Under the pieces are notes generated by a model, which saw only the letters and a list, made by a program, of their open reading frames with translations, made no database searches and had not been told where the DNA came from. The translations under genes and the position numbers were made by a program. Below are positions 12,707 to 52,520 of a DNA stretch of 64,000 nucleotides, one piece after another. The DNA comes from Psilocybe cubensis (taxonomy: Eukaryota), in assembly GCA_017499595.2 (NCBI GenBank), contig CM038999.1, positions 3,100,001 to 3,164,000 of the forward strand. The letters run 5' to 3'. The first letter of the stretch is position 1, and each line of letters opens with the position of its first letter.

Positions 12707-15700
12707 TTACCTTCCACGCCTCCTTCCATCAATCCTTCGCGGTTCAATACCCACTAAAACCCCAAAACTGCCTACCCAATCTTTGGGTAGGTTCTCCTCA
12801 TCCCGGAGCGTGCCTCGCCACGTGTTAAATACCAGCTTTTTTCGCAAGGCTTTCTTACCGTATTTGGCTCGCGTCAGTACGGAGTCCAATTCTAACCTCA
12901 GGTTAATGGTTTTCACCCATCTATTATGGACTTCGATTCCTGATACCGGTATCCCGTCCTCATTCTGGATTACTGCTTCGCAACGTAGTTTCCATATTAG
13001 ATATGCTGATTCCGTCATCAAGATTCGGAGCAGCCTTGCTTCCCCCTCAGCATTGTCCACCCGTTTGCCTTTTTTCTTATCACGTTTCATCGGTCTTGTG
13101 CTTAATATTATCTCTTCTAGAGTTGGTTCCGGCCAGGGGCTGCTAGTCCTCATACCCCAGAGTTCCCTCGCTAGGTTCCATATTTGGGCTCGTCCCGATG
13201 TCGGACACTTCTCAATGATGTGAGTCATCGACTCCGTCTCTCTTCCACATTGTTTGCATACGCTACGTTCCTGGAATTCTAGCCCAAAACCTGGTTTTCT
13301 CCAGTTATTTCCTATCATATAACCATCGTGAATCACCATCCATAGGAAGTTACGGATTGTTCTTGTTACATCCTTGTTCCTAATAGCCTTCCAGATTAGG
13401 CTGGTTTTATAATCCAGTTCCTGATTTTCTTTGGCAGCCGCCTCAATTTTTGTCAGGTTAGTCCGTGTTTGGTGTCGTTCCTCATAGTTTCTCATCTTGT
13501 GCTTACGGACTAGCTTGTATGCTTCCGATTGTGTCAGATTTGCTATGTCCGCTCCGGATAGATTCCACCCATTCATGATTTGTGTGTCTGGTTCAGCAAC
13601 TACTCCTTGGAGGACTCCAATGTCAGCTAGTTTTTCAGCATCCTTATCTCGTTGGTTTGGTTCACGATTTTGTTTCCACAGTATAATAGGTTCACAGCTC
13701 AGATGTCGCAGACTAGCAATTGTCGCTCGGACAAGTTTCGCGTCGGGCACTCCAAGGTAATCTCTTCGTTCATTTTTCATTGCATCAATTGTCAAATCCT
13801 TGACTGTGCCAATAGAATCAATTTCTACTGTTAGTTTTTCAGAGCTCGCTGTGCGGTCCGCAAGCAGTTTGATTGCGGTCAGTTCGCCTATTCTATCACT
13901 TTGTTCTGGGCTTGTTGACAGTTTGAGTGATAGGTTTTTTGGGCTACCGTCGCTAACAAACACACCGATTCCGGTTGTTTGTGTCTCCTTGAATGAGATA
14001 GTACTTATTGTTGCATGTATCGTGGTTATCTCCCCCTCGAATTTAGCTTGTATCTTTGGTAATGTATTGTTCGGCTCTCCCTCTGTGAATACTCTGAAGA
14101 TATTTGCAAGCGATCCACTAGTTTCAATGGTCCTACTAAATGGATATTTTGTAATGGGTTTGTCCTCGTTTGCGTATTGTTCACCTATCGGACGAGTTTG
14201 TGGGTGCCATTTTATGGTAAGCGTTTCTAGCAGTTCTTTTGCCTTTTCAAAACATTTATTTGGGTTTTCACATCCTAGTGTATTGCGTGCTGTGGTGCAT
14301 TCGTTGCATTCGCACCAGCTATCTCTTGTGTGGTCCACACTTTCAAGTACGTTGCGGATCCTTTCAATTTGTCCAACACTGATTGCATTATGGTTGTTTC
14401 TTATGCATTTACTGGCACCACTGTGATTCAGCCGTCGCAGCCTTGGAGCCGCTGCCTTATGGTACCACAAAGGCATTTCTCGTCTTATGTCTGACGACAC
14501 TTCAAGGCATTCAATGCGGGTATTATATTCCGCTGCAATTTTGATAAGCCTTCTTACACTGGGCGCTGCCTCCGTCCCTTGCATGGTTGTCCATGATTGC
14601 AGAAAAATATTTACATGCGCTTCAGGCGGTACATTTTTCTCCGTTTTTGGTACTTGTTTTGACATCAGGGCATCCGCAACAACTGCCCATGTTGGTCTGT
14701 CTGGTCCAAAGCTCAGGTACGACTTTAGCCACATCAGCTCAATAGCCTTGTTTCGAGCGTTAATATCCAGGACTGCCCTTCCTCCAGCGGTGATTGGCGA
14801 GTATATAGTTTTTTCATTTACTGGTATTAATTTCCGATTGTCCCAGAAAAACTGGCGCACACGTTTTGTTATACGTCTTTCAACCTCCACAGGCATACCT
14901 TGGACTGTTGTCAGGTACTGTGTCATCCCGCCTATTACCATCTGTATAATTAGGCGTCTGCCTTCCATCGTTGGGTGACTTTTCTCCCACCGTTCAAGAT
15001 TCTTGTCGATCTTTTCTAATACGGGTGCCCAGACATCTACCGTGTCAACATTATTACCTACCCATGCTCCCAGGATCCGGACGGCTTCGCCATCTTCTGC
15101 TATATGCATATTTGCTGGTATAGGTTCCCCATTTTGTTTTGTCGTACGTGTTTCTATTACCCTTGCTCTGTATTCCGATGTTCCTATTGGGATGATTTCG
15201 GTTTTCTGAATATTAAACTTGGCCAGTGATGCTTTACACCATTCATCAAGTATAGCTTGTAGGTCATTGAAGTCATCTTTCTCCGACAAGAAGGTTGTCG
15301 TATCGTCTGCAAACAGGTTGGCAATTAGTTTTTCTGTATTATTGGGGATCTTATATCCCTCTAGGTGTGATTCTCGCAGTCGGGCAGCTAAAGGTTCAAT
15401 TGCCAGATCAAAGAGCAGACACGACATAGGATCTCCTTGTCGCACACCCCTAGTCACATCAAAGCACGAGCTAAGGTATCCATTCACCATTACTTTTGTT
15501 TTTGCATGCTGATAGAGCGATTGAATAGTTGTAATAAATTTTTCCGGGATATTGTAGGTGCGTAGTGTTTTCCATAAGTATTCATGGTCTATCTTATCAT
15601 ATGCCTTTTCCTGATCTAGGGCTATTATCAGGCCATTCTGCTCTGTCGCCTCGGCATACTCGATCATCATCTCAATCAGTTTTGTTTGATCTGCTATTTT

Positions 15701-18040
15701 TCTGCCAGGTACAAAGCCAGCCTGGCTTTTATGTAGTAGGTTGGGTGCTACCTGGGCAAGTCTCATTGCTAGTACTTTTGTGAAGATTTTGTAATCTGTG
15801 TTGAGTATTGTTATTGGTCTATAGTTAGATATCTCATTGCGATCGTTCTTTTTATATAGTGGGCACATCCACCCATCCGAAAAACCGGTTGACGAGTCAA
15901 CTCCGTGTTCTTCTATATCGTTAAAGACGGCGGTTAGTAGTCCCACTATATTGAATTTTTGAGGGCTCATATCTTCTTTGTCAACATTCACTTTGTCAGT
16001 TTCATTTTGACGCTTAGCTTCTGTTTCCAGGTATGTTGCATTTAGCTTTTTCCACAGCTCATAAGTAATTCCGTCGGTTCCCGCAGCTTTGCGTAGCTGA
16101 CCTTTTGAAAGTGCCATGCTAACTTCAGCGGCATCAATTTTTTTCTCAAGGTCGCTGACTTGATCGCGTCTCACTCTTGTTGTGATGGCTCCGAGGACTT
16201 TGTCTGTACTAGCCTCCCTAAGTCTTGGATCCACATCGGTGCCTAGGTTCTGTAGGTTTTCGTGGTAATCCCTTGCCAGCTCTGCCATCTTTGGAGAGTG
16301 TTTTTCGTATGGGTCGCCAATCATTGTGGCATGTGCACCTTCCGCTTGTGCAACTGGCTTTCGTAGTGCTCGTATTACATCTCTGGGTTTGTTCTCTTTA
16401 TTAATGTTTGACCAGTATGTACTGATTGTTTCCCCTTCCAGTCTATTCAAAGCTGCAACATTGGTTCGTCGTTTTTGGTGGCGGCTAACCTCCAGTTTTT
16501 TAATTCTGGTTCGTATCTCCGATGCCTTTCTGTTTCGTGTTTCTTCGTGTTCATCACTATTATTAACCCTATCAAGCTCTGTTTCTAGATCTCGTAGTTG
16601 ATTAACAACTTTAGGCACTATGGCCCTGTCTCTGCTTCTTGCTTTTTCCATGATATCCTTTTTGAACGATGCAAACAGTCTCTGGACATTTTTTGTGTCT
16701 GTCCTTTGGTGTGAAATAGCTTCTGCTCGTTTCATTGTTTCTAAACCTTTCTTGTCAATATAGTCCAGAAGGATCCTATCCTTTAGCAGATATGAGGGTA
16801 ATGCCCATCTCCCTTTGCCTACTTCTGGTGTATTTTCGTTAACAACCTTGACTGACACCATGCGGTGGTCAGCATTGGGAACACCACTCGTACAGATTGT
16901 CCATTCTCGTGCCGTTTCCAAGATTCTTTGCTTGACATAGATGCGGTCAATTCGTGACTGTGATGCCCGACCATTCTGTTGTTGGAATGTATAGGCCTTA
17001 GAGTCCGGGTATGTGTCTCTCCATCCATCGTGGAGTCTTGCCAGCGTTTTGAGCTCATCAAACGCCTCTTGTATAGTATTAGTATCTCTATCACTTTTCA
17101 TAGGGCATCGGTCTATCTCACTTTCCACCATGTTAAAATCTCCCAACATTATGTCAGGGTACGCAGATGGGTGTTGTTCTAGGTACCTCTTTATTTCTAC
17201 CCAGAAGGGGCCATTTTCTGGAGTCTCGCATGGAGCATAGACGGCCAATATAGTAAGCTCATCCTCTCCATGCCACTTAATTTTGACGCTCAGAGCCCTT
17301 CCTTTAGTTATTTCAGTTGATTTAGCATGTGTTGCCTCGATTAGTTGTTTGTTGATTACTATTGCTACCCCGCCCTTTCCAGTTGGGTTCTGTGGGTCCG
17401 AGCTATAGAAAATTTTCAGTCGACGGCCAAATTGTCTCTCAATCTCCCGACATTTTGCTTCGTCCATGTGGGTCTCTTGTAGGGCCAAGATTGCGATTTT
17501 ACGTTCACGCATCTCCTGATTTATGTGTAGCCATTTATTATTCGGATGATTTGAGTTAGCACTTCCAAATCCCTTCATATTTAGCGACGCTATACCAATA
17601 GCGGCTTTTTTGAATGCTCTATCTGCATTCCGGCGTGCTCTACGGTTTAGACCATTTATATTAGCTACCATCTGGGTAGTTGCTTGAGACGGGCGCTCAT
17701 GGCGGTCCCCATCTTGAGCCATATCCATAGGCTCCCCCACAGTCTGTGGGTTGTGCTGAGAACTTGTCCTCAGGCTTTGCGCAGTCTGCGCTACCAGGTA
17801 TGCATCTGGGTTTTGTGTAGGTCCGTTTTGGTTCCCACCATCGCCCCTGTTCTCAGTCAGGCGATCTGTCACAGTCTGTGAGTCAACGGTGGATGATCCA
17901 CCTCTAGGTATCCGCTGATCATAATCTGGGTGCCCAGTAGTCGTCTGGCTGCACATCCCAGACTCCCTTTGGCTCCCTAGAACTCCATTTCCATAAACTG
18001 CCGCCCGATCCCTAAGGATGGGCCCAATGGAGGAGGCCAC
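12707..18040 (-). CDS. LINE ORF2: AP endonuclease, reverse transcriptase, degenerate RNase H, CCHC zinc finger (first ATG at 17956)
   Basis: APE motifs IASLNMKG, LALQETH, LGDFN, SRIDRIY, ADH; RT motifs NYRPITILNTDYKIF, LDQEKAYD, GVRQGDPMS, LFADD, ILG; Zn finger CKQC..ETESMTHIIEKC. Confidence 0.95.
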   Translation of the reverse strand: MASSIGPILRDRAAVYGNGVLGSQRESGMCSQTTTGHPDYDQRIPRGGSSTVDSQTVTDRLTENRGDGGNQNGPTQNPDAYLVAQTAQSLRTSSQHNPQTVGEPMDMAQDGDRHERPSQATTQMVANINGLNRRARRNADRAFKKAAIGIASLNMKGFGSANSNHPNNKWLHINQEMRERKIAILALQETHMDEAKCREIERQFGRRLKIFYSSDPQNPTGKGGVAIVINKQLIEATHAKSTEITKGRALSVKIKWHGEDELTILAVYAPCETPENGPFWVEIKRYLEQHPSAYPDIMLGDFNMVESEIDRCPMKSDRDTNTIQEAFDELKTLARLHDGWRDTYPDSKAYTFQQQNGRASQSRIDRIYVKQRILETAREWTICTSGVPNADHRMVSVKVVNENTPEVGKGRWALPSYLLKDRILLDYIDKKGLETMKRAEAISHQRTDTKNVQRLFASFKKDIMEKARSRDRAIVPKVVNQLRDLETELDRVNNSDEHEETRNRKASEIRTRIKKLEVSRHQKRRTNVAALNRLEGETISTYWSNINKENKPRDVIRALRKPVAQAEGAHATMIGDPYEKHSPKMAELARDYHENLQNLGTDVDPRLREASTDKVLGAITTRVRRDQVSDLEKKIDAAEVSMALSKGQLRKAAGTDGITYELWKKLNATYLETEAKRQNETDKVNVDKEDMSPQKFNIVGLLTAVFNDIEEHGVDSSTGFSDGWMCPLYKKNDRNEISNYRPITILNTDYKIFTKVLAMRLAQVAPNLLHKSQAGFVPGRKIADQTKLIEMMIEYAEATEQNGLIIALDQEKAYDKIDHEYLWKTLRTYNIPEKFITTIQSLYQHAKTKVMVNGYLSSCFDVTRGVRQGDPMSCLLFDLAIEPLAARLRESHLEGYKIPNNTEKLIANLFADDTTTFLSEKDDFNDLQAILDEWCKASLAKFNIQKTEIIPIGTSEYRARVIETRTTKQNGEPIPANMHIAEDGEAVRILGAWVGNNVDTVDVWAPVLEKIDKNLERWEKSHPTMEGRRLIIQMVIGGMTQYLTTVQGMPVEVERRITKRVRQFFWDNRKLIPVNEKTIYSPITAGGRAVLDINARNKAIELMWLKSYLSFGPDRPTWAVVADALMSKQVPKTEKNVPPEAHVNIFLQSWTTMQGTEAAPSVRRLIKIAAEYNTRIECLEVSSDIRREMPLWYHKAAAPRLRRLNHSGASKCIRNNHNAISVGQIERIRNVLESVDHTRDSWCECNECTTARNTLGCENPNKCFEKAKELLETLTIKWHPQTRPIGEQYANEDKPITKYPFSRTIETSGSLANIFRVFTEGEPNNTLPKIQAKFEGEITTIHATISTISFKETQTTGIGVFVSDGSPKNLSLKLSTSPEQSDRIGELTAIKLLADRTASSEKLTVEIDSIGTVKDLTIDAMKNERRDYLGVPDAKLVRATIASLRHLSCEPIILWKQNREPNQRDKDAEKLADIGVLQGVVAEPDTQIMNGWNLSGADIANLTQSEAYKLVRKHKMRNYEERHQTRTNLTKIEAAAKENQELDYKTSLIWKAIRNKDVTRTIRNFLWMVIHDGYMIGNNWRKPGFGLEFQERSVCKQCGRETESMTHIIEKCPTSGRAQIWNLARELWGMRTSSPWPEPTLEEIILSTRPMKRDKKKGKRVDNAEGEARLLRILMTESAYLIWKLRCEAVIQNEDGIPVSGIEVHNRWVKTINLRLELDSVLTRAKYGKKALRKKLVFNTWRGTLRDEENLPKDWVGSFGVLVGIEPRRIDGRRRGR

Positions 18041-18505
18041 ATCCTCTCCTGGTGCGACAGCCCGAGGTCCATTTCTCCAGCATCCTTGGGGTCTACCTAA
18101 GAGGGTAGTGTCTAATCCTGTATTGTTAGTAGGGTTAGTTGCACAAATAAAAGTTACCTAGAGAGGACAGGCCAAGCCCAGTCCAGGTCTGATGGTTTCC
18201 CGACGTCTCCGAGGTGTTGTAGAACACTACTCTTCAACGTAAGGATTGCCTGTATGTCCGGCGCGACCCCATCAGTAGCCTTGACTCTTCTTTTAAAATG
18301 CCTTCGACTTTCCTGTTCTAAGCAGTAAATTCGGTGTCCGGCGTTTGCAGAGGCTACTCTATATTTAGTGCAGACTCCTCCGACTTCTTCTAAATCTACA
18401 TTTAGGCCCAGACTGGGTTTTCAGCTCTTTGACAAGCATTAAGATGGATGACACAATTTATTAACATCACTATTGAGACATATTATACATGTACGAGGAC
18501 ATATG

Positions 18506-24325: not shown

Positions 24326-24508
24326 AAAAAAGAGAGCCTGCCCAGCCAGAGTGGCCGAAGCAGGACAGGAAAATATTGAGACGGTGCATGAGCCTAAGCC
24401 CATACAAACCGCAGACACCCCCTGAGGACATGGTCGCCGTGCTATGGGGGATTTCCACGGCCCACAAACCCAGGTACTTGAAGGGGCTTATGCCATCAAG
24501 GTAAGTAT
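24326..24508 (-). ncRNA. U1-like small RNA gene, copy 2 (body intact, separated from its promoter by the Ngaro insertion)
   Basis: Identical to 11162-11344; its upstream sequence resumes at 31053. Confidence 0.7.
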
Positions 24509-24813
24509 AAGATATATTTCGCTCGGATTAAATTGCACTTTTTCGGAATGTGCTAAATTTGAGTAGAAGTGAAAGGAGGAGAAGGTGACAGAATATCCGA
24601 GTTATCTGATATTCCGTGGGTGCGTAGGGCTTTGGCGGGTGGTCAGGAAAGACCAAGTGAAGGTCACGAGAAATGACCGGATTCGAAGTGAGACACGCAA
24701 AGCGCGAGTCGTGAGGAAACGAAAGCGAGGAGAAAGGTTTAGCCGCCAAAGGCCTGAGCGCTTGGATCGAACCACGTGGAAATCGCAAACGAGAACCAAC
24801 GGTGGCAGTACCA
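24507..24813 (-). repeat. Ngaro split direct repeat B2
   Basis: Identical to 25152-25458. Confidence 0.95.
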
Positions 24814-24851
24814 AACACTGGAAAAAGGAAAGAAAAGGGAGAGGAGGGTGG

Positions 24852-25153
24852 GCTCAAAAGAAAAATCGGAGGCGAGTCGAGGGGAAAGACGAGATGAGAC
24901 TGGACGAGTCTGAAGACGAGCCGGTAGGGGAGAAAAATACGAGGACAACTTTTATTATATAGATGTACAGAAATTAAAGAATCAACAGAAGAGACTGGGG
25001 AGGTATGACAGGTGAGACCTGACAAGTGTCAGGTTCAGGAACCGGAAGACGTTAAGACGATCATTAAAACAGAGAAGACAAAACTCAAATAAGCAATCGT
25101 CATCCTCGCTGCTATCTTATCCATAGATGAGTGCTACGCACTCATCGTGGAAT
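24852..25153 (-). repeat. Ngaro split direct repeat A2
   Basis: Identical to 30751-31052; abuts B1 through the shared AT (25152-25153). Confidence 0.95.
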
Positions 25154-25458
25154 AAGATATATTTCGCTCGGATTAAATTGCACTTTTTCGGAATGTGCTA
25201 AATTTGAGTAGAAGTGAAAGGAGGAGAAGGTGACAGAATATCCGAGTTATCTGATATTCCGTGGGTGCGTAGGGCTTTGGCGGGTGGTCAGGAAAGACCA
25301 AGTGAAGGTCACGAGAAATGACCGGATTCGAAGTGAGACACGCAAAGCGCGAGTCGTGAGGAAACGAAAGCGAGGAGAAAGGTTTAGCCGCCAAAGGCCT
25401 GAGCGCTTGGATCGAACCACGTGGAAATCGCAAACGAGAACCAACGGTGGCAGTACCA
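25152..25458 (-). repeat. Ngaro split direct repeat B1
   Basis: Identical to 24507-24813. Confidence 0.95.
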
Positions 25459-25682
25459 GACGGAGCGCAAGCTCACCACCAACGCCGTGGGTTCTCGGGC
25501 CACAAGGAAGACCCAAGCAGAGCTGAGCACCAATGTTAGAAGAGGACGGACGTTGATATCAAACCAGATGTCAAGAAAATAAGCATGATTTAATTGAGTG
25601 AACACAGGATAAGTTTATACCGGAATAAAGTAGCGAGAAGGGAAATATTGCAGCAGAGAGTAGGTAAATAAAGTACAATGGT

Positions 25683-27557
25683 CTATAAGTTGAGAGAAGC
25701 AGCATTGGAGAGCGAGGATTGCGAGATGTTACAGTTGATGCGGAATTGTTCGACAGAAGCGGAAACATTATCTAGGTTTGATTTGGAATATGCAGCAGAT
25801 GTACAGGATGGGATGATTTCAGCCATACGGCGCCAATAAAGAAGGAAAGCGAGCGAGGTCCAGCCACCGGTGGCGGCCACAACCTGGAGAGAAAGAGATA
25901 AGAGATATGAAGGGAAGGAGATGAAGAGAAATACCTCAGGAGGGACACCGGCAAGGAGGAGGGTAACCGCACCACCAATGCGGAAGGAGTGGCCGGATAT
26001 GTGAGCGAGGTTAAGACGGTCCCACACTTTGCACACAAATTGCAGAAAAGTGTGTTTGTACAAGTGGGCCCAACCCCCATTGTTGGTGCGGTAAGCGAAG
26101 AGAGATGATAAGGGAGGAGGATTTCTGTTGATAATCATATGGTTGAGAAGAGCAGAGACAGGGCACAGAGCATCTCTGCGGGCAGTGATGATGATATCTG
26201 CGCCCTCCTCGTGTGTGGTTTTGGTCCAGGGGATGTGGAAACTAGCCGAGACGGCAGAACCATTGATATAGCGAAAGTTTATGAGAGAGTCGGAGGCGCA
26301 AACGTTGAGCAGTGGAGAGAAGGAGGAGGCAGACTTGACAGTGGTTTCCCCAAGACGACGACAGCCGAAAAAGGTAACAAGGGCACAAGCCCAAACTGCC
26401 GCATCGAAGGGTTTTGAGATGTCGATGGAATTGCGGAGGGCAAGAAGATGTTCGATGGAAACCGGAGCACGCGGAGGACGCTTGAAGGCTACACCAGCCT
26501 TACTGGCTGCTTTCCGTGCAAGAGACAGCCATTCGTTGTCTCCGTGCCAATCAGCCCCTTTGAGGACATGCCAAGCTCTGACACCGGCAAGCCAGGATTT
26601 GACTGTATTGCCAGAAACGCGACCGGAGGCCCAGTCAACAAAGGCAGTAAGGGTAACGATGGATGCGGGCATGCGGGAAGGCTCGGAGATGGAAGATTCG
26701 TCGCAGAATTCATGAAAACGTTTGAGACCTGCCGCATAGGTGGATTTTGAATTATCAGCGAGGGCCCGTGCCACGAGGTCGTAAGCCCGGTCCACTACAG
26801 CTGGGGGATGAGATGAGGACAGGTCCATTCTGTGAGACTGATCAAAAGAGGAAGTCCAAGAAGTGAGGCGAGCAGCAGCAGGAACGTTGGGGCGGAAAGG
26901 ATGAGATGATGATAAAGGGTTTGATGAAACAGGAGGAAGGTTATTTAACACGGGAGGTGAAGAGACCTTAGCTAACGAAGGGGAACAGGATGGTGAGGGA
27001 AGGGGTTGTGAAACTGGAGAAAGTACTGGAATCTGAGGGTTTAAATAAGAAGAAGGGGATCCGGGGGGAAGCAGGAAAGGAACAGGGCGAGGGTGAAACT
27101 TTTTGGAAGAAGATAGAATTGGAAGTGAAGAAACTTTAGAAGGGAAAGAAGAAGAAGAGCGGCTACGACGAGGTTTACTAGAACGTACAATTTTAGAAGA
27201 AGGGGGGTCAGAAAGCAAAGAGGAAAAGGGATGAGATTGGAACTGTGAAATGGGGATGTTTGATAGCGACACGCGGCGCGGAAGGGAAGTCGAGGAAGCG
27301 GACTCCCCACACGTGGAGCATCGGCCTTCCCGAGGCCCTTTATGCGAACAATGCATTGGGCAGGAAAGAGGAGCGGAGCTCGCCAGGCAGCGAGAAGCGA
27401 ACCTCCAATTCAAAGCCGAGAGGACCACCCAATCCGCGCGAGAGGGGGTCAGCAGGATTCTCTTTGGAAGCAACGTAGGATAATTCTGGAACAATATAAA
27501 TGGAAGAGAGGACAGCACAAGAACGACGGATGGAGAGGTTGATGTGAGGGTTAGCAC
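25683..27557 (-). CDS. Tyrosine recombinase of the Ngaro element (start uncertain; 51-nt intron 25884-25934)
   Basis: SAM-like N-domain ALADNSKSTYAAGLKRF; catalytic motifs FFGCRRLGE, IPWTKT, GHSFRIGG, GGW, LLYWR. Confidence 0.92.
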   Translation of the reverse strand: MLTLTSTSPSVVLVLSSLPFILFQNYPTLLPKRILLTPSRADWVVLSALNWRFASRCLASSAPLSCPMHCSHKGPREGRCSTCGESASSTSLPRRVSLSNIPISQFQSHPFSSLLSDPPSSKIVRSSKPRRSRSSSSFPSKVSSLPILSSSKKFHPRPVPFLLPPGSPSSYLNPQIPVLSPVSQPLPSPSCSPSLAKVSSPPVLNNLPPVSSNPLSSSHPFRPNVPAAARLTSWTSSFDQSHRMDLSSSHPPAVVDRAYDLVARALADNSKSTYAAGLKRFHEFCDESSISEPSRMPASIVTLTAFVDWASGRVSGNTVKSWLAGVRAWHVLKGADWHGDNEWLSLARKAASKAGVAFKRPPRAPVSIEHLLALRNSIDISKPFDAAVWACALVTFFGCRRLGETTVKSASSFSPLLNVCASDSLINFRYINGSAVSASFHIPWTKTTHEEGADIIITARRDALCPVSALLNHMIINRNPPPLSSLFAYRTNNGGWAHLYKHTFLQFVCKVWDRLNLAHISGHSFRIGGAVTLLLAGVPPEVFLFISFPSYLLSLSLQVVAATGGWTSLAFLLYWRRMAEIIPSCTSAAYSKSNLDNVSASVEQFRINCNISQSSLSNAASLNL

Positions 27558-30500
27558 TGCGGCCCTTGGTAAAGGCGCCTATAGTGCCTTGATTATCTGA
27601 GTGAATCAGGAGGCGGATGTTGGATAGAGGTAAGCCCTCAATGATGTAGATGAGGAGTTCAATAGCGATGGTTTCCAGCCAACAGATGTCGCGTCGGCCA
27701 ACCTTCCAGGAAGAGGACAACTGGAAGGCCGCCCATTTCCCATCAATAACAATACCAATGCCCCAGGAGGTGCTGGCGTCCACGAAGATCTGTCGATCAA
27801 CGACGGGACCAAGCGGTGAAAGGAGACGGGTGATGCCCACAGAGGATAAAATGGGAATCCACCAACTGACGTCTGTCAAAACCGATGGAGGGGGGTAACG
27901 GCTTGCGTATTCATTGTCATTAAAGGAGGCAGCGAAGTTAGAGAGGGAAGGGAGGTGTGAACGACCAAGGGGATATACAATGGTAATGTAGCAGAGAGAA
28001 CCGTGCAAACTCTCCACCTGACTGAGTCGACACCGATGGCCACTGAAATTGTCAAGGAAGTGACGAGCGCGGGCGAGGAATTTTAGGCGCTTAGGATCGG
28101 CCAACGCAACTGTGTGGTTGGCAAAGTCCCAGACCAGGCCCAAAAAGATAGTGGAGGAGGAGAAAGTGCGAGTGCCCTTGGTGGGATGCCAAGGGACACC
28201 TAGGTCACTGACATGCGACATCATTGAGTCCCAATCGTAGTCGTAGCGGAAGGCTCCGTCCACAAAGGGGCCAGAGAGGGAGGGGCTGCGAAGGATGTTG
28301 AGGTCATCCTCGTACTTCAGGATAGGCTTGACGCCAGATGCAATCCAGATATCAACTAGAGCATTGGCAATCATGCCTGCATTGGAACTGGCGCAAGCAG
28401 CACCGAAGGGATGAACATGATCGATGTAGAACTCGTCTTCCCCAAGACCTTGAACAACAAGCCATGGCTTGTGGTCTGGGAAGACAGGGCATGTGCGGTG
28501 GAATTTTTCAATGTCTACCGTCACCGCCTGAGTGCCCGGGGGGGCCATAGCAACCTGAAGAAGGTATCAGAGAGGAAGAGGGAAAGTCAAGATAAGATGA
28601 AGTAGGAAGGGAAGCAAAGAGATGAGGGAGTGCATTGTGCGGATAGAGGAGAAAGGGAAAGGTGGAGGAGGAGGGAGGGGAGGAGAAAAGGAAGGGATGA
28701 AGGGAGGGGAGGGGATGAAAGGAGAAGGAGGGGATGGAGGAGAGGAGGATAGACGTACGATGTCAGCCACGCGGACGGCAGTGTCAAAGCGTGTCGGAAA
28801 ATCGGATTTACGGATGAAAGAGTTCACCGATGGAACTTGGGAGGTAGCCTTGGAGAGATTGCGACAAATACGAATTTTGTCGGGCTCTCCAGGAGCTTGA
28901 GGTTGGATTGCAACAATGAGAGGGGAGGATTGGAAAGGTCCGCGGAGGATTTTTTCAATGAGATCTCTGGGGAAAGGACCAGTCATACGACCAGCAGAAA
29001 CCTCGTCATTGATGTAGGCCGAAACCTCCGCAGGAAAGAGAGAACAAGAGGGATGGTTTTTTAGGATGTGGGTGGAGGAGAGAGGAGGCATGGGACCAAG
29101 AGGAAAGCCGGATGAAAGGTTGCGAACAAGGAGTGGGTAAGTTGAGGAGAGGTTGAATTTTTTGAGAGCGGAATGAAAGGCAGCGGGTGAGTAGGGAGTG
29201 ACAATGCGCGAAAAGATATTGGGGAGAGTGTGTAAAGAAGGAGAGAATGGGGGGCGGACATGAATGCGAGAGGAAAAGTCGGGATAAAAAAGGCGGGGAG
29301 GAGAAGAGAAGAAAGATGAATTAGTTGTAGGCAGGTCTTGCCCGACAGGTGAAGGAGAAAGCGTGATGGGATTTAGAACCACAGAAGCAGCAGATGTGGG
29401 AACGGGCAGTGCCGTGTCCGCATGGGGTAGGGTTGTTGGGGCCCCTGATGTTAAAGGAAAGACAGATTTCTCTGTTGTCAGGAGCAAGGAGTTTCCCATC
29501 TTGGGAGTGGGCCCAGGCATTCTTACCATCTGGGAACTTAGCCGGGACTTTGTCTTTGGGATGGGAGCCGAGGGAGTGACCGACCTCTGCACAAAGGAGG
29601 CAGATAGGTGGGCCGGTAGATGACCTATTGCCTGATTGAAAAAGAGTGTTGGAGGAGGAATTGCCAGAGCGGCGATTAGAGGAGAAGGATTTGAAACGAG
29701 ATACGGACTCTTCGAGTGAAGCAAGTTTGGAGGAGAGGGCTGCCACCTGAGATTGTGCAGCCTGGGCCTGTCTGTACTCCGAGATAGCATGGTTAAACGC
29801 GGTCTCGTAGTCAAGAACAGAGAAACGTTGAAGGAAAGTGTGAGTATCACGACGCAATTTGAACTCTGCCACCTTCCATGCCGGATAAAGGGCGACAGAA
29901 TCAGGGCGAGAGCTCCAGAAAGAAAAATGACCAGTCCAAATGGAAATCCACTCATCATCAGAAGCGCGCTCCCTCTGAAAGCGGGTATATTGATCGGCAG
30001 CTTGCATGAAAGAACCAAAATCAAGGGAAAGCTCTTCCCCCAATTTGGCGGTAAGCTTTTCGATGTCGAGGATGTAGAGAGCTTTCGAGTCTGGAGAAAT
30101 TGAATTGGACTTCTTGATAGGAAGGCTGGCAAGGTTGTCAATGATGTAACGGAGACTTTTTTGAGTGAAAAAGGGAAGAGGGAGATTAGCCTGAGCTTTT
30201 TCCGTCTGGAACATGATTTCTGGAAAAGCAATGACGGTAGGAGCCATCGGATCACGAATAGAAAGGGACGAGCCTTGCATGCATCTGCGCTTGGCAATTC
30301 TGTCCTCAGCAGAGGAAGGGAGGTCTTTGATGGAAGAGTCCTCGATAGATCTTTTCTGTTCTCTGGCAAGGGAGTCCTGTTCAGAGAGCCAGGCAATGAG
30401 ATAATCAGGGATTTCATCTTTATCCAGATATTTTTTAGCAATAGCAGGAATTCTGAGCTGAGCCTCGTCATCGGGTGAAAGAGAGATAACGGAGGCCTCG

Positions 30501-30582
30501 GGGGATCCGGGCATAGGAAAAGCCGCGGGATCCAGACTATGATTAGCAGTTTTGGTGATGCGCTCGAGATTTTTTGCCACAA
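27340..30582 (-). CDS. Reverse transcriptase/RNase H of the Ngaro element (conserved part starts ~29240; 204-nt intron 28555-28758; start uncertain)
   Basis: GPFQSSPL, KIRICRNLS, VDIEKFHR, HPFG, YEDD, FLG; RNase H FVDAS, WLE, HSDN, NPADPLSRG. Confidence 0.9.
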
Positions 30583-30745
30583 TGGCCTTGTTGCGAGCCA
30601 GTTTCAGAGGCAGAGGCAGAGATTTTAAGACAGCATAAGCAGCGGGAACAGCACGGGTAATGTGCGCTCTGGGAGGATTAGCAGGCGGCGCTGGGACGGG
30701 AGACGGTGCGCGAGAGTCGTGAACGGATTGGCCGGCTTCAGACAT
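29321..30745 (-). CDS. Gag-like ORF1 of the Ngaro element
   Basis: ATG just inside of repeat A1; coiled coil followed by Cys/His motifs CLLCAEVGHSLGSH and C..FN...C.H....HICCFCGSKSH. Confidence 0.85.
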   Translation of the reverse strand: MSEAGQSVHDSRAPSPVPAPPANPPRAHITRAVPAAYAVLKSLPLPLKLARNKAIVAKNLERITKTANHSLDPAAFPMPGSPEASVISLSPDDEAQLRIPAIAKKYLDKDEIPDYLIAWLSEQDSLAREQKRSIEDSSIKDLPSSAEDRIAKRRCMQGSSLSIRDPMAPTVIAFPEIMFQTEKAQANLPLPFFTQKSLRYIIDNLASLPIKKSNSISPDSKALYILDIEKLTAKLGEELSLDFGSFMQAADQYTRFQRERASDDEWISIWTGHFSFWSSRPDSVALYPAWKVAEFKLRRDTHTFLQRFSVLDYETAFNHAISEYRQAQAAQSQVAALSSKLASLEESVSRFKSFSSNRRSGNSSSNTLFQSGNRSSTGPPICLLCAEVGHSLGSHPKDKVPAKFPDGKNAWAHSQDGKLLAPDNREICLSFNIRGPNNPTPCGHGTARSHICCFCGSKSHHAFSFTCRARPAYN

Positions 30746-30750
30746 GGCGA

Positions 30751-31052
30751 GCTCAAAAGAAAAATCGGAGGCGAGTCGAGGGGAAAGACGAGATGAGACT
30801 GGACGAGTCTGAAGACGAGCCGGTAGGGGAGAAAAATACGAGGACAACTTTTATTATATAGATGTACAGAAATTAAAGAATCAACAGAAGAGACTGGGGA
30901 GGTATGACAGGTGAGACCTGACAAGTGTCAGGTTCAGGAACCGGAAGACGTTAAGACGATCATTAAAACAGAGAAGACAAAACTCAAATAAGCAATCGTC
31001 ATCCTCGCTGCTATCTTATCCATAGATGAGTGCTACGCACTCATCGTGGAAT
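30751..31052 (-). repeat. Ngaro split direct repeat A1 (5' end of element)
   Basis: Identical to 24852-25153. Confidence 0.95.
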
Positions 31053-47616: not shown

Positions 47617-49492
47617 AGTTTTTGGTGATAGGTATGAATTGTCATCGGTGAAAGCGAGGGGGGGAATGTTGAGGTTTTTTTTTTTTGTGTCATTGCTGAT
47701 TTGGTTTTGATTTTTTTTTTCTCTTTGCAGTTTTTTGTTCTCTGCTTTTTCTTTATTTTTTGTTCTTTTGTCTCCTGTGCCATATGTTCTCTTTTTCTCT
47801 CTCCTTTTGTCGGACTCTTGTGCTGTGATGTTTGATCCTAATGTAATATGTTGTATATCGCCCCTTGTATTCTATTGTACTGCATTGTACTTGTGTTTTC
47901 CCCATCTCTTGCTCTCTTCCGCTCCTCCACCCATCTATCCATCTACATCATTACTATCCGCACTCTCCTTTTCTTTTCTTTTCTCCATCTCCACTATCAT
48001 TCTATCTCATCCTCCATTCTCATTGCATTGCATCTCCATCTTCACACATCCCAGCACCGCTGCACGCTACTATCCCTCGGAATTGGAATCGGAAAACCGA
48101 TACACACAACACACAACACACACATCCCTATCTATACAACAACATTGCATCGTCTTGTAACTCAAACTGTCAACCGACACCCATCTCATTCTTTTTTCTT
48201 GGATAACTGTTGTCTCTTTCTCTCTCCTTGTCAACTCATCTCTGGTCTCTCCTTCTCTCTCTCTATTTTCTGTTCTGAGTTCATCCACCATCCACTCCTT
48301 TTTCTACCCTTTTTTGTTTTGGTTCACAGACAGACAGGTAGACTTTTGTTTGGTCTTCATGGAATCTGGAACCAGGTTTGGGTTGTATGGTTTCTGTAGG
48401 TTGTAGATGTGTACCCTGTAAGTAGCGTAGCTGTTCACAAAAACATGATATAATTATTGAGATTAAGGTTTGGGGGCGAGTTTGTTGCATATATTGAGGG
48501 CCCTATGTGGTGCAAGTGCAGATAGAAGAGAGTAAAACGTACATCGATAGATCAGGTCATCAGAGGTAACACAAAAAATAGAAAACACCTTCTCCGTCCA
48601 TTCAAAGCAGCCTATGAAAGCGCTAAAACACTCGAGGCTAGCCTGGCCCATCTTGTAGTCGACATACTAATAACTTTCGAATATTTACATTCCGAAGTCG
48701 GTATTTTATTCCTGCGGTAGTTTGAAGACATGCGTATGTGTATGCGAGAGGTGAAAGATAAGGTGTGATCAATCTGGTTGTATCATACTATCATATCACC
48801 CGTGACATTCCAAACGATCTATGACACGGGCAAGCTGCCGCTAAAATTTTAGTACTCATCTCCAATCCCTTGACAGAATAGAGATATGTTATGGTTGAAG
48901 ATATTATGGATATCCGCAAATAAAACACAGAAAATATAACCAAAATGTGTATGAAGAAAAGGTATAAAAGGAGGGGAGAGCATCGTAGTATATCCCCAGC
49001 AAAATAACTCGTCTACTGTTGTGAGCTACCTGCTCCTTTTTAGCCATTCCATTCAACTAATTTCAAATCGTCATACTTGGGATAGATTCTGAACAAGTGT
49101 ATGCACATTCTACATCCATGGATGTGAACCACCAACGACTGACGAATGTCCTACCAGAATGAAATTCTTCATCGTTCTCAGCGCCCTCCTCGCCAGCGCC
49201 ACTACCGTACTCGCCTCTCCAGTCGAGGACAATGCATCAGCGGAAAAGGTTTTTTTCAGTAGTACACACCTATATTACAGTAGACACCGTAGTAACCACA
49301 CTTTCCAGTAGCCTTTTTTGCACTTAGTAGCCTTACATAACATCATTATCTAATATATTTTCATTACATAGGTTTAATACATTGTATTCACAATATACAG
49401 TAATTTATGGAAACTATATAATCAAGGCCCATGCAACATACAGTAGTACTTACAATATACTTATAGACTTTGTAGTCTGCGAGCGAAATAAA

Positions 49493-49564
49493 TGGCCTGC
49501 TCAAGGATTGAACCGTCAACCTTAGCCAAAAATAGACTGTCCTTAACCAGTAGACCATAAGACT
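49493..49564 (-). other. Degenerate tRNA-like unit (Pol III A/B boxes) inside the TIR element
   Basis: TGGTCTACTGGTTAAGGACA (A box/D arm) ... GGTTCAATCC (B box) ... GGCCA; stems partly broken. Confidence 0.65.
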
Positions 49565-49749
49565 TTACAAAACAATATGGACTATAGCATAAATGTCAAT
49601 TGAGTTATGGGATTTTATGATATGGAATTAGATGGAATAGAATAAGTGGAATAACAACAATACTAATGTCAATGTTAACAAACACAACACAGAGTCCAAA
49701 TAATGGATTCAATAGTGGATATTGACATATAACTCTCAATCTATTTATA

Positions 49750-49820
49750 GGTCATATAGCTCAGTGGTAAAGTATTGGCAACATACTTGGGAGTCATTGG
49801 TTCGATTCTAGTCCTAACCA
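49750..49820 (+). other. Degenerate tRNA-like unit (Pol III A/B boxes) inside the TIR element
   Basis: GGTCATA TAGCTCAGTGGTAAAGT ... ATTGG TTCGATT CTAGT CCTAACCA followed by TTTT; anticodon arm does not pair well. Confidence 0.7.
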
Positions 49821-52220
49821 TATCTTTTCTGTTGTTATTTACTTAACAGATTCTGATAGTAGACAAGTTGAAGAGAGTTAGATAGAGGTATAATATATTG
49901 TTAGACTGGATGGAGGCTTACTATCCAAAGTCAGCTAATTGGACGGAGTAGAATGGCTAATAAAGATATTAATGATACCAACTGTCCTATTAATGATTTT
50001 TACTCAATATTAAATTGCGCATAAAAATATATAGTTAGCAATGTAGTACCTATAGATTAATATTATACTATTTATTAAAATTACAGAAGACTACAAAAGC
50101 TACATATATGACTAAGAAATCTACAGAATCTACTGACTTTTGGTAGGAAGCTACAGGAGCAATAAAATAGGAGGGCAGTCAACAAGACTACCCAGCCTAT
50201 TATACAACCATAGCACTACTGAATTTTTTCTTTTTCTGCAGATGTGTTTCCTCCCTTCAATTCGCGCAGGACGGTCCCGCACCGGACGGCTGCTACTAGG
50301 AGGGCGCAGCCCCCTTCTGCGGTGCAAGCTCGTGCACCCAAGGATATACCGAGATCGACCGTGGCAATTGCGGCGACGGCGCCTGCTGCTGGACCGGCAC
50401 CAAGACGCTCTGCTGCACCAAGGCTGCCACTGCCGCTGCAAAGAAGAAGATCACTCATCCCCAGCAAATTTAAAACATTCTAAATTCGATGGAGCATATC
50501 GTACACACAGTTATGTACCCATTTTATCAAATGTTTACGCTGTCAAGAGAAGAGTTTTTCAATGTTGGCACTGTTGCCTTCCTTCCATAGCCTGAGTTAT
50601 TTTGGTCCATTCAAATTAGGCGCCTTGATGAGTCATGACCATCAAGCCTTTAGTCCGGCAAATTGCGAAGCCAAGAAAAATTCATGAAAATACCATATTT
50701 GCGACTTGTTGTAAAGATGATAAGTGAGATATACTTGTATAAATCACCGTGTATTCTATTGTATTGCATTGTTGCAAATCCTCCCTCAGAGGATCGTCTC
50801 TTATAAGGCACCAGTCCTGTAAGGATTGCCCCCTTTTTTAGCCGGCATCAATCGGCTTCACTTTGACTGCGGTATTTTTGCTGGTGATTGCAGTCCAGAC
50901 ATTGTCCGGCGGGAATGCCGAGTGATTGCCGGGGAATCCGAACCAGCACTGGGTCACGTTTCCCTATTTCTTGTTTTCCTCTGCTCCTTTTCTTTTCTCT
51001 TCCACTCTCATTCTAAATCTCTTTGCATATGGCATAGCCTGCATTTATACACATGAAGCATTACTGCACGATGTTGTCCTTCGGAATTGGAATCGGGAAT
51101 CCAACACACTCTCAATACCACTTATCATAATATGGGCCTTGCATCATCATGAAACTCGTATTGTCAACCGACACCCATCTCATTTTTCTTTCTTCTTGGA
51201 TGAACATACTCTCTCTCTCTCTCTCTTTATCACCCTTCTGCACTCATCTTTTACCTCTCACTGTTTTTTCTTTTGTTTTCGCTCTCTTTCTTGCCACCCT
51301 TTCGTTTTGGTTCACGGAAGGACGAATGGACTTGTTTGGTCCTCTGGAATCAGAATTAGGCTGTAGGTGTATACTCTATGAAAGCGCATAGGTATCCCCA
51401 AAATCATGGTATAATGATCGTAATCAAGCCTTGGACACGAGTTTGTAGTAGCAATTCGTGTGTTTGACACGTAAAGACGCAAACACAGAGATCGCCTCAT
51501 CCAAGCATTTAATGGGATTCAAATACATAGTAAGCCTTTATGTCATGTGGATGGAGACGCTAAAATTCTGTTGCATGATTTTACACACGTTAATATAGTT
51601 CCAAGTTTAGTCCTCAATGCGTCCAGCTCATAACTTAAGACGCCTTGGAGCAAGTCCTATGCCCCCAAATAGTAAACATCGGCCTTCTCTGTCAATCAAA
51701 GGCTATCCTATCAAAACACTAAAACAATTGCTAGCTTGAAGTCGATGCACTATTAACTTACAAATCTGTAAATTTGGGACTTAAGTTTTGCTGTGGTTTG
51801 AAGGCAGACGCATGGGTATTCAAGAGGTGAAAGATAAGGGGGCTATAGCATATCTCCCTTGCTATTCCACGCAATCTGCGACAAAGGTAAGTGCTACTAA
51901 ATATTTAGTACTCATCACAGATCCCCTTACAGAATAGAGGTATCGTAATGTTGAAGAAACTACGGAATAATCGCAACAAAAAGCAGAAAAACCGGTAGAA
52001 ATTTGCTTGGAGAAAAGGTATAAAGGAGAGGCATGGATCGTGGAATATCCTCAGCGAAGTATCTCGTTTACTATTGTAAGCCACCTGCACTCTTCCAACC
52101 ATTCTATTCAACTGATTTCAAATCATCATTATACTTGGGATAGATTGCGAACAAGCGTAAGTACATTCTGCAGCCGTGGATGTGATCCACCAAACACTGA
52201 CAACTTTACACTCTAATAGA

Positions 52221-52520
52221 ATGAAATTCTTCATCGTCTTCAGCGCCCTCCTCGCCAGCGCCTCTACCGTGCTCGCCTCTCCTGCCGAGGACACAACCTC
52301 CTCCCTTCAATTCGCGCAGGACGGCACGGCACCCAACGGATGCCACTGGGAGGGCACTGCACCCTTCTGTGCAGGTTCGTGCGCCCAAGGGTATACCGAG
52401 ATCGATCGTGGCGGGTGCGGCGACGGCGCCTGCTGCATCACTGGAATCAAGACACTGTGCTGCACTCAGGCTGCCGCTGCCGCTGCAAAGAAGAAGATTG
52501 CTAACGCCAAGCCAATTTAA
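52221..52520 (+). CDS. Small secreted cysteine-rich protein (99 aa, 8 Cys), intact copy
   Basis: Signal peptide MKFFIVFSALLASASTVLA; CHWEGTAPFCAGSC...CGDGACC...TLCC; TATA at ~52019 and a probable 5'-UTR intron ending just before the ATG. Confidence 0.88.
   Translation: MKFFIVFSALLASASTVLASPAEDTTSSLQFAQDGTAPNGCHWEGTAPFCAGSCAQGYTEIDRGGCGDGACCITGIKTLCCTQAAAAAAKKKIANAKPI

Follow-up and report, generated by a model that had tools for sequence, protein, structure and literature searches.

A 64,000-nucleotide stretch of Psilocybe cubensis contig CM038999.1 (assembly GCA_017499595.2; called the window here, with position 1 as its first letter) carries at 49235-50244 a 1010-bp element that contains no gene, has moved recently and interrupts the coding exon of a gene for a small secreted cysteine-rich protein. 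The best explanation is that the element is a gene-less PlavakaB transposon that inactivated this gene, and that the transfer RNA (tRNA)-like sequence in its center is passive cargo; we put the probability of this statement as a whole at about 0.7. Taken by itself, the identification of the element as a transposon is very probable. An earlier note, made from the letters of the window alone, had proposed a terminal inverted repeat (TIR) element of the same extent, holding two outward-facing tRNA-like units.

The limits and mobility of the element were examined by aligning three contig sets, X1 and X9 among them, and one set of raw reads from another strain, X13, to positions 48740-50740 at a likeness of at least 80%. 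The features delimited in this way are the following.

49235..50244, no strand: non-autonomous, putatively PlavakaB-type DNA transposon, non-coding, 1010 bp; delimited by depth step, unmatched read ends and empty-site joint
49233..49234, no strand: left copy of the target-site duplication (TSD), TG; the empty X13 allele reads ...GACAATG/TTTCC, with a single TG
50245..50246, no strand: right copy of the TSD, TG; X13 joint from 49232 to 50245

Over the fourteen bins that lie within the element, summed X13 depth is ~485, and over the nine bins of single-copy flank it is ~34; this ratio of ~14× indicates a family of about 14 copies. Nearly half of the aligned X13 reads (1949 of 4341) are at least 99% alike to the window, so many of the copies are very young. 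Unmatched X13 read ends pile up directly before 49235 (319 reads), where their agreement of 0.45 reveals many different flanks, and heterogeneous unmatched ends also follow 50244 in 170 reads and 50245 in 216. The depth step and these read ends confirm both limits, and the length, that the earlier note had given.

The insertion is polymorphic, with some strains filled and others empty. The empty-site joint in X13, supported by 28 reads from 20 start points, skips 1012 bases with TG..TG ends and 2 ambiguous letters; the unoccupied allele is GACAATGTTTCC, and its one TG bears out the TG duplication proposed earlier. The filled site in X1 contigs (records 1 and 2) is identical to the window. Thus, the empty site, the ~14× depth and the unmatched ends at both termini identify a young, multicopy insertion with a 2-bp duplication, and the precision of that site and the near-identical copies strongly support the DNA transposon family envisaged in the earlier note. 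At two or more other loci the left flank ends in ...TA (unmatched-end consensus, X13), about half of the right-flank X13 reads begin with TA, and ~170 of 386 do not start with T. These mixed flanks indicate a TSD that is 2 bp long, yet not strictly TA.

The element has a G+C content of ~33% and holds no ATG-initiated open reading frame (ORF) longer than 56 aa wholly within it, and blastn finds no second copy of it in the window. Mitochondrial DNA, being AT-rich and containing tRNAs, was considered as a possible origin. A left-arm subfamily variant was also seen: joints from 49340 to 49464 and from 49340 to 49486, together with 59 X13 reads that leave at 49340 with one consistent sequence, describe family copies in which the stretch 49340-49486 is replaced or missing.

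Terminal signature and subterminal arrays

49235..49247, plus strand: left terminal repeat CATCAGCGGAAAA, a PlavakaB-type terminus; next come a run of T7 and the first of the GTAG motifs
50232..50244, minus strand: right terminal repeat, minus-strand sequence CATCTGCAGAAAA; 11 of 13 positions match the left end
49257..49331, plus strand: left subterminal array of five GTAG-core motifs (YMRGTAGNN), with more at 49443, 49472 and 49550
50088..50222, minus strand: right subterminal array of seven CTAC (minus-strand GTAG)

With at most one mismatch allowed, the 64-kb window has just two occurrences of CATCWGCRGAAAA, 49235-49247 on the plus strand and 50232-50244 on the minus strand. The TIRs named in the earlier note are therefore present at both ends and unique in the window. 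The terminal repeat is short, because the two 200-nt arms align no better than shuffled arms (local score 20 versus 18.0 ± 2.5), and a long TIR extending past the terminal motif was rejected on this ground. The inverted subterminal arrays also stand: the left 250 nt contain seven GTAG and no CTAC and the right 250 nt seven CTAC, where ~0.7 would be expected from the window frequencies. A hAT element at 49257-50221, starting with CAGTAG and flanked by an 8-bp duplication, was considered and rejected, since the reads put the ends at 49235 and 50244.

PlavakaB is a member of the CACTA/Mirage/Chapaev-related "CMCT" clade of mushroom-forming fungi and, in the passages of PMC12730594 covered, its representatives in Agaricomycotina have 2- or 3-bp TSDs, ends of the form 5'-CATCA..TGATG-3' and short family-specific repeats just inside the termini. 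Among the PlavakaB consensus sequences listed in the supplement of that paper, 23 of 24 start with CATCA and 12 of 24 with CATCAGC. The left end of the element is CATCAGCGG and its right end ...CTGCAGATG, the latter agreeing with the PlavakaB terminus at 4 of 5 positions. The first 12 nt are common to the PlavakaB-1_FoPa consensus, and the complement of the right end starts with CATCT, like the PlavakaB-1_GyCo consensus (both in the same supplement). The duplication also lies in the PlavakaB range, with a single TG in the empty site and TG on both sides of the filled one. From these sequence features, we file the element as a putative PlavakaB derivative and, since it contains no gene, as a non-autonomous one. 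Its anatomy is strong support for a cut-and-paste element that a PlavakaB transposase mobilizes in trans.

The Plavaka transposase domain is pfam18759 according to the part of PMC8290104 consulted, and no transposase domain was found in the window ORFs scanned (one scan covered 8, and another 41 of the 69 that are at least 130 aa long). A scan of metagenomes for the terminal pattern returned 38 matches, approximately the number expected by chance; none was related, and the best blastn alignment (46 nt) was the pattern itself. Just inside the CATCAGC terminus, at 49249-49256, an A-run is followed by a T-run (GGAAAAGGTTTTTTT), as is also the case in the PlavakaB-2_LaDe consensus (PMC12730594, the supplement); the two runs may form a small hairpin shared at the left end.

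The interrupted gene and its tandem paralog

49159..50473, plus strand: host gene for a small secreted cysteine-rich protein; coding exon split after 49234
52221..52520, plus strand: intact tandem paralog, 99 aa with 8 Cys, colinear across the insertion site

The flanks of the element, 48850-49231 and 50249-50477, align colinearly to the uninterrupted paralog with identities of 77.7% and 82.5%, respectively. The paralog lies ~3 kb from the host gene and has a signal peptide, an alanine/lysine-rich tail and an intron in the 5' untranslated region; its protein has no significant match in Pfam (best E = 0.37). X1 contig record 2 connects the paralog with the right flank of the element. Two further variants of the paralog gene are carried by X9.

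Without the insert the host gene product would be 100 aa long, and with it translation stops after 50 aa. In addition, the window allele has TAG at 50297-50299, where TGG is found in all 56 X13 reads, in the X9 contig and in the paralog; at the position concerned, 50298, the window has A and X13 has G in 27 of 27 and 29 of 29 reads. Independent of the insertion, the TAG adds a second inactivating change to this allele. With its frame truncated by the insertion and a nonsense codon besides, the host gene is thus a pseudogene in the window strain.

Two tRNA-like units inside the element

49750..49820, plus strand: decayed tRNA-derived unit; box A perfect, box B with 1 mismatch
49493..49564, minus strand: questionable further tRNA relic; motifs like box A and box B, spaced as in a tRNA, and without a cloverleaf

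The plus-strand unit is tRNA-derived, as the earlier note had held, by Rfam, ARAGORN and cloverleaf pairing. It matches the Rfam tRNA model over its full length (1-71) with 20.8 bits against a cut-off of 29 bits (E = 0.29 over 4227 families), and at 90% thresholds ARAGORN calls nothing else in the window. It forms 15 of 21 cloverleaf pairs, a number that 0.7% of random 72-mers from the window reach; the T stem is complete (5 of 5, two of them G-U pairs) and the acceptor stem has 4 of 7 pairs. Judged as a tRNA gene by Rfam gathering score and cloverleaf, the unit thus falls short on both counts, and its sequence identifies it as a genuine but decayed tRNA. Other copies preserve it better. In ~40% of X13 reads a G at 49756 restores acceptor pair 7-66, and past 49780, 113 X13 reads (agreement 0.95) continue as TATATAGCCGGGAGTCACTGGTTCAATTCC, a better-preserved tRNA 3' half. 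This variant has C in place of the window T, a T-arm start that pairs cleanly and a cleaner anticodon stem. This C in the 3' half of other copies fits one part of the C>T/G>A decay suggested in the earlier note, namely the C>T of the plus unit.

The minus-strand unit fares differently. The spacing of 185 bp between the two units is as the earlier note gave it, and the minus unit does have a box-A-like motif with 2 mismatches and a box-B-like motif with 1, at tRNA spacing. The part of the claim that calls for a tRNA is not confirmed: a 121-nt search with E up to 10 returned no tRNA match, ARAGORN made no call at 80% thresholds, and 12 of 21 cloverleaf pairs form against a null of 9.7 ± 2.1, so that with no Rfam match and this pairing the unit does not qualify as a tRNA gene. 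On the opposite strand, the "A box" of the minus unit reads CCAGTAGAC, which equals the subterminal motif ACAGTAGAC found at 49280. The odds that this unit is a true tRNA relic are near even. 

For the box statistics, we take the consensus sequences to be TRGCNNAGTGG (box A) and GGTTCRANNCC (box B), and the mismatch thresholds were set after the minus unit had been seen. At these thresholds the 64-kb window holds 2 box A/box B pairs, both within the element; 7 of 2000 shuffled elements contain one, and ~0.03 are expected in the element by chance. That the boxes seem better kept than the stems, as the earlier note also remarked, partly reflects bias in detection: it is by their boxes that decayed tRNAs are recognized. 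The T-rich runs reported behind the units amount to TTTT for the plus unit and TTTATTT for the minus unit, and neither is followed within 30 nt by a run of five or more T; the next T5 after the plus unit is at 49997, and on the side of the minus unit there is none within the element.

The units belong to the family and are not peculiar to the window copy. X13 depth over them is 492 and 623, compared with an element mean of 485. X1 record 3, a high-depth contig covering 49235-49834 with 1 difference, joins the left terminus to both units, and X9 record 16, also of high depth, spans 49368-49803 with 1 difference. Subfamily contigs that are 11-16% diverged (X9 records 15 and 17; X1 records 4 and 5) cover the units as well. 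The earlier note would have given up its proposal had other family copies lacked the units, and both the high-depth and the diverged contigs contain them. Its alternative, each unit being an independent short interspersed element (SINE) with its own TSD and tail, is not borne out: no direct repeat of at least 9 nt flanks either unit, one AT-rich 8-mer being found (~0.6 expected, an estimate), and neither unit has an A-rich or simple-repeat tail. The block 49722-49780, consisting of 28 nt upstream of the plus unit and its 5' half, also stands in another repeated genomic context.

Competing explanations, known systems and significance

In the explanation that we favor, a PlavakaB transposase encoded elsewhere in the genome would recognize the CATCAGC... 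termini and probably the polar GTAG subterminal repeats as well. The 1010-bp unit would be excised and reinserted with a 2-bp duplication, and one such event would have brought it into a tandem pair of genes for small secreted cysteine-rich proteins, within the coding exon of one member, which was thereby inactivated. The family ancestor would have picked up a tRNA gene, or a pair of them, from chromosomal DNA or from another repeat, and the captured sequence would have decayed afterwards, leaving units that have no function. Non-autonomous CACTA-type elements do carry captured chromosomal DNA (Pack-CACTA, in the portion of PMC6379663 consulted), and the tRNA-like sequence is most likely passive cargo.

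Several points weigh against this explanation. The right terminus is AGATG instead of TGATG (4 of 5), and an autonomous partner was not seen within the 64-kb window. The sole Psilocybe PlavakaB consensus published in PMC12730594, as far as the covered parts of that paper go, is PlavakaB-1_PsiCub; it has ends of CATCATAAAAAG... and TTACAA-type repeats, and since both differ from those of the element it is not the partner. The two units have each retained box A and box B, spaced exactly as in a tRNA, as the only 2 pairs in 64 kb, and they face outward symmetrically and are retained across subfamilies 11-16% apart. Box retention and symmetry would also fit selection for binding of transcription factor IIIC (TFIIIC), and passive cargo is the default reading, not a result.

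The earlier note proposed a functional reading, in which the outward-facing units would be kept for TFIIIC binding and/or transcription by RNA polymerase III (Pol III), forming a boundary against silencing of the kind made by tRNA genes (tDNAs) or giving rise to small RNAs. The box matches speak for it (0 mismatches in box A and 1 in box B of the plus unit; 2 and 1 in the minus unit), as do the rarity of such pairs in the window (~0.03 expected in the element) and the presence of the units in near-identical as well as 11-16% diverged copies. tDNA barriers are known from yeast. Boundaries made by tDNAs and SINEs are established elsewhere, for example by B2 SINEs (PMC8136502) and by TFIIIC on Alu (PMC7014570), in the sections of these papers covered. 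However, every tRNA model fails on the minus unit, and its "A box" CCAGTAGAC is the element's own repeat motif ACAGTAGAC at 49280. Neither unit has T5 or longer, a fungal-type terminator, within 30 nt downstream, the consensus sequences are those we assumed with thresholds set afterwards, and a family this young is uninformative on selection. We regard this reading as unlikely. The fuller version, in which the central divergent tRNA-derived candidate TFIIIC sites would act as a portable boundary or a source of Pol III small RNAs and so keep copies unmethylated and mobile, is a little less likely again.

A second possibility differs from the passive-cargo explanation in the donor alone. Here, the tRNA-like part would originate in an independent tRNA-derived repeat, such as a SINE head, that entered the ancestor of the element before amplification. 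Indeed, 146 X13 reads match only from 49722 onward, with unrelated sequence before (agreement 0.65), 113 X13 reads leave the window sequence after 49780 for the better-preserved tRNA 3' half, and the bin 49745-49811 is the deepest of all (623 versus the mean of 485). Together, these reads and the depth peak imply that a few copies of the tRNA-like part, with 28 nt of upstream sequence, exist in another context, and the donor of the block may have been another repeat. Against a nested SINE, a repeat of this Pol III type would be expected to begin at the tRNA 5' end or close to it, and the shared block begins 28 nt upstream of that point; the flanking duplication is limited to the chance-level AT-rich 8-mer, there is no tail, and the excess in depth corresponds to just 3-4 copies. 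We regard this nested-repeat reading as unlikely.

A Tc1/mariner-type miniature transposable element with inverted repeats (MITE), duplicating TA, would share the 2-bp duplication and would account for the TA that ends left flanks at at least two other loci and starts many right flanks. Yet the window copy and the empty allele have TG, not TA, ~170 of the 386 right-end reads lack an initial T, and the termini fit the PlavakaB signature, all of which makes this class very unlikely. Finally, an ordinary long intron or introner of the secreted-protein gene is an extremely improbable reading: a GT at 49249 and an AG at 50241 with a pyrimidine tract at the right end would suit it, but the exon is uninterrupted here in other strains and in the paralog, and removal of GT49249..AG50241 as an intron would leave 19 nt too many and shift the frame, so that the surplus and the empty site rule it out.

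Elsewhere in the window, ORFs encode a reverse transcriptase of the long interspersed element (LINE) type and fragments of ELP1, a P-type ATPase and a RhoGEF that are split by introns. On the minus strand, 12707-18157 is an open frame of 1816 aa with endonuclease, reverse transcriptase and zf-RVT, which looks like an intact LINE. Several open frames of 408-678 aa that have no Pfam match lie at 24500-30850, also on the minus strand, in a region of strongly positive GC and AT skew that could be a large gene or a repeat.

Returning to the PlavakaB derivative, comparison with known systems shows both likenesses and differences. Like the PlavakaB elements of PMC12730594, in the passages covered, it has CATCA(GC) termini, a 2-bp TSD, short repeat arrays inside its ends and a gilled mushroom as host, and one of the published families comes from Psilocybe cubensis itself. 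In contrast to them, it is gene-less, measures 1 kb compared with 6-24 kb for the consensus sequences, and ends in AGATG rather than TGATG; its ends and GTAG repeat motif differ from those of the published Psilocybe family, and its tRNA-derived cargo is a feature that those passages do not mention. The Pack-CACTA and Pack-TYPE elements of plants, as portrayed in parts of PMC6379663 and PMC8903248, are likewise non-autonomous, CACTA-related and mobile and carry captured chromosomal DNA. Their cargo, however, consists of fragments of protein-coding genes, whereas here it is a tRNA relic that was presumably captured.

As a mobile repeat that spreads internal box A and box B sequences and could potentially bind TFIIIC, the element also resembles tRNA-derived SINEs and tDNA boundaries (PMC8136502 and PMC7014570, in the sections covered). 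SINEs, by contrast, travel by an RNA route with the enzymes of LINEs, carry a tail and are flanked by variable duplications, while this element moves as DNA and its tRNA-like units are internal and divergent. The non-autonomous hAT and mariner derivatives active in Marasmius oreades (PMC9674265, main text as consulted) are, like it, short and gene-less elements of a gilled mushroom with new insertions between close strains. They have the same ends as an autonomous element and belong to other superfamilies. The accessible main text of that paper, like that of the second Marasmius paper, PMC8290104, contains "tRNA" 0 times. In the literature consulted, tRNA-like cargo was not found described for Plavaka, nor for TIR elements or MITEs of fungi, in a search that did not extend to the word tRNA in PMC12730594.

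PlavakaB has been little studied, with structural characterization only in 2025. The present case documents a recently mobile gene-less derivative with exact ends, a TSD and natural presence and absence between strains, and the element is seen knocking out a gene for a secreted protein. In addition, the acquisition of host DNA by such elements can be traced cleanly with the tRNA relic as a marker. Should the functional reading be true, the element would be a DNA-transposon counterpart of SINE and tDNA insulators, and TFIIIC binding to its boxes, if it occurs, would make it a rare example of a DNA transposon that brings along a boundary element of its own.

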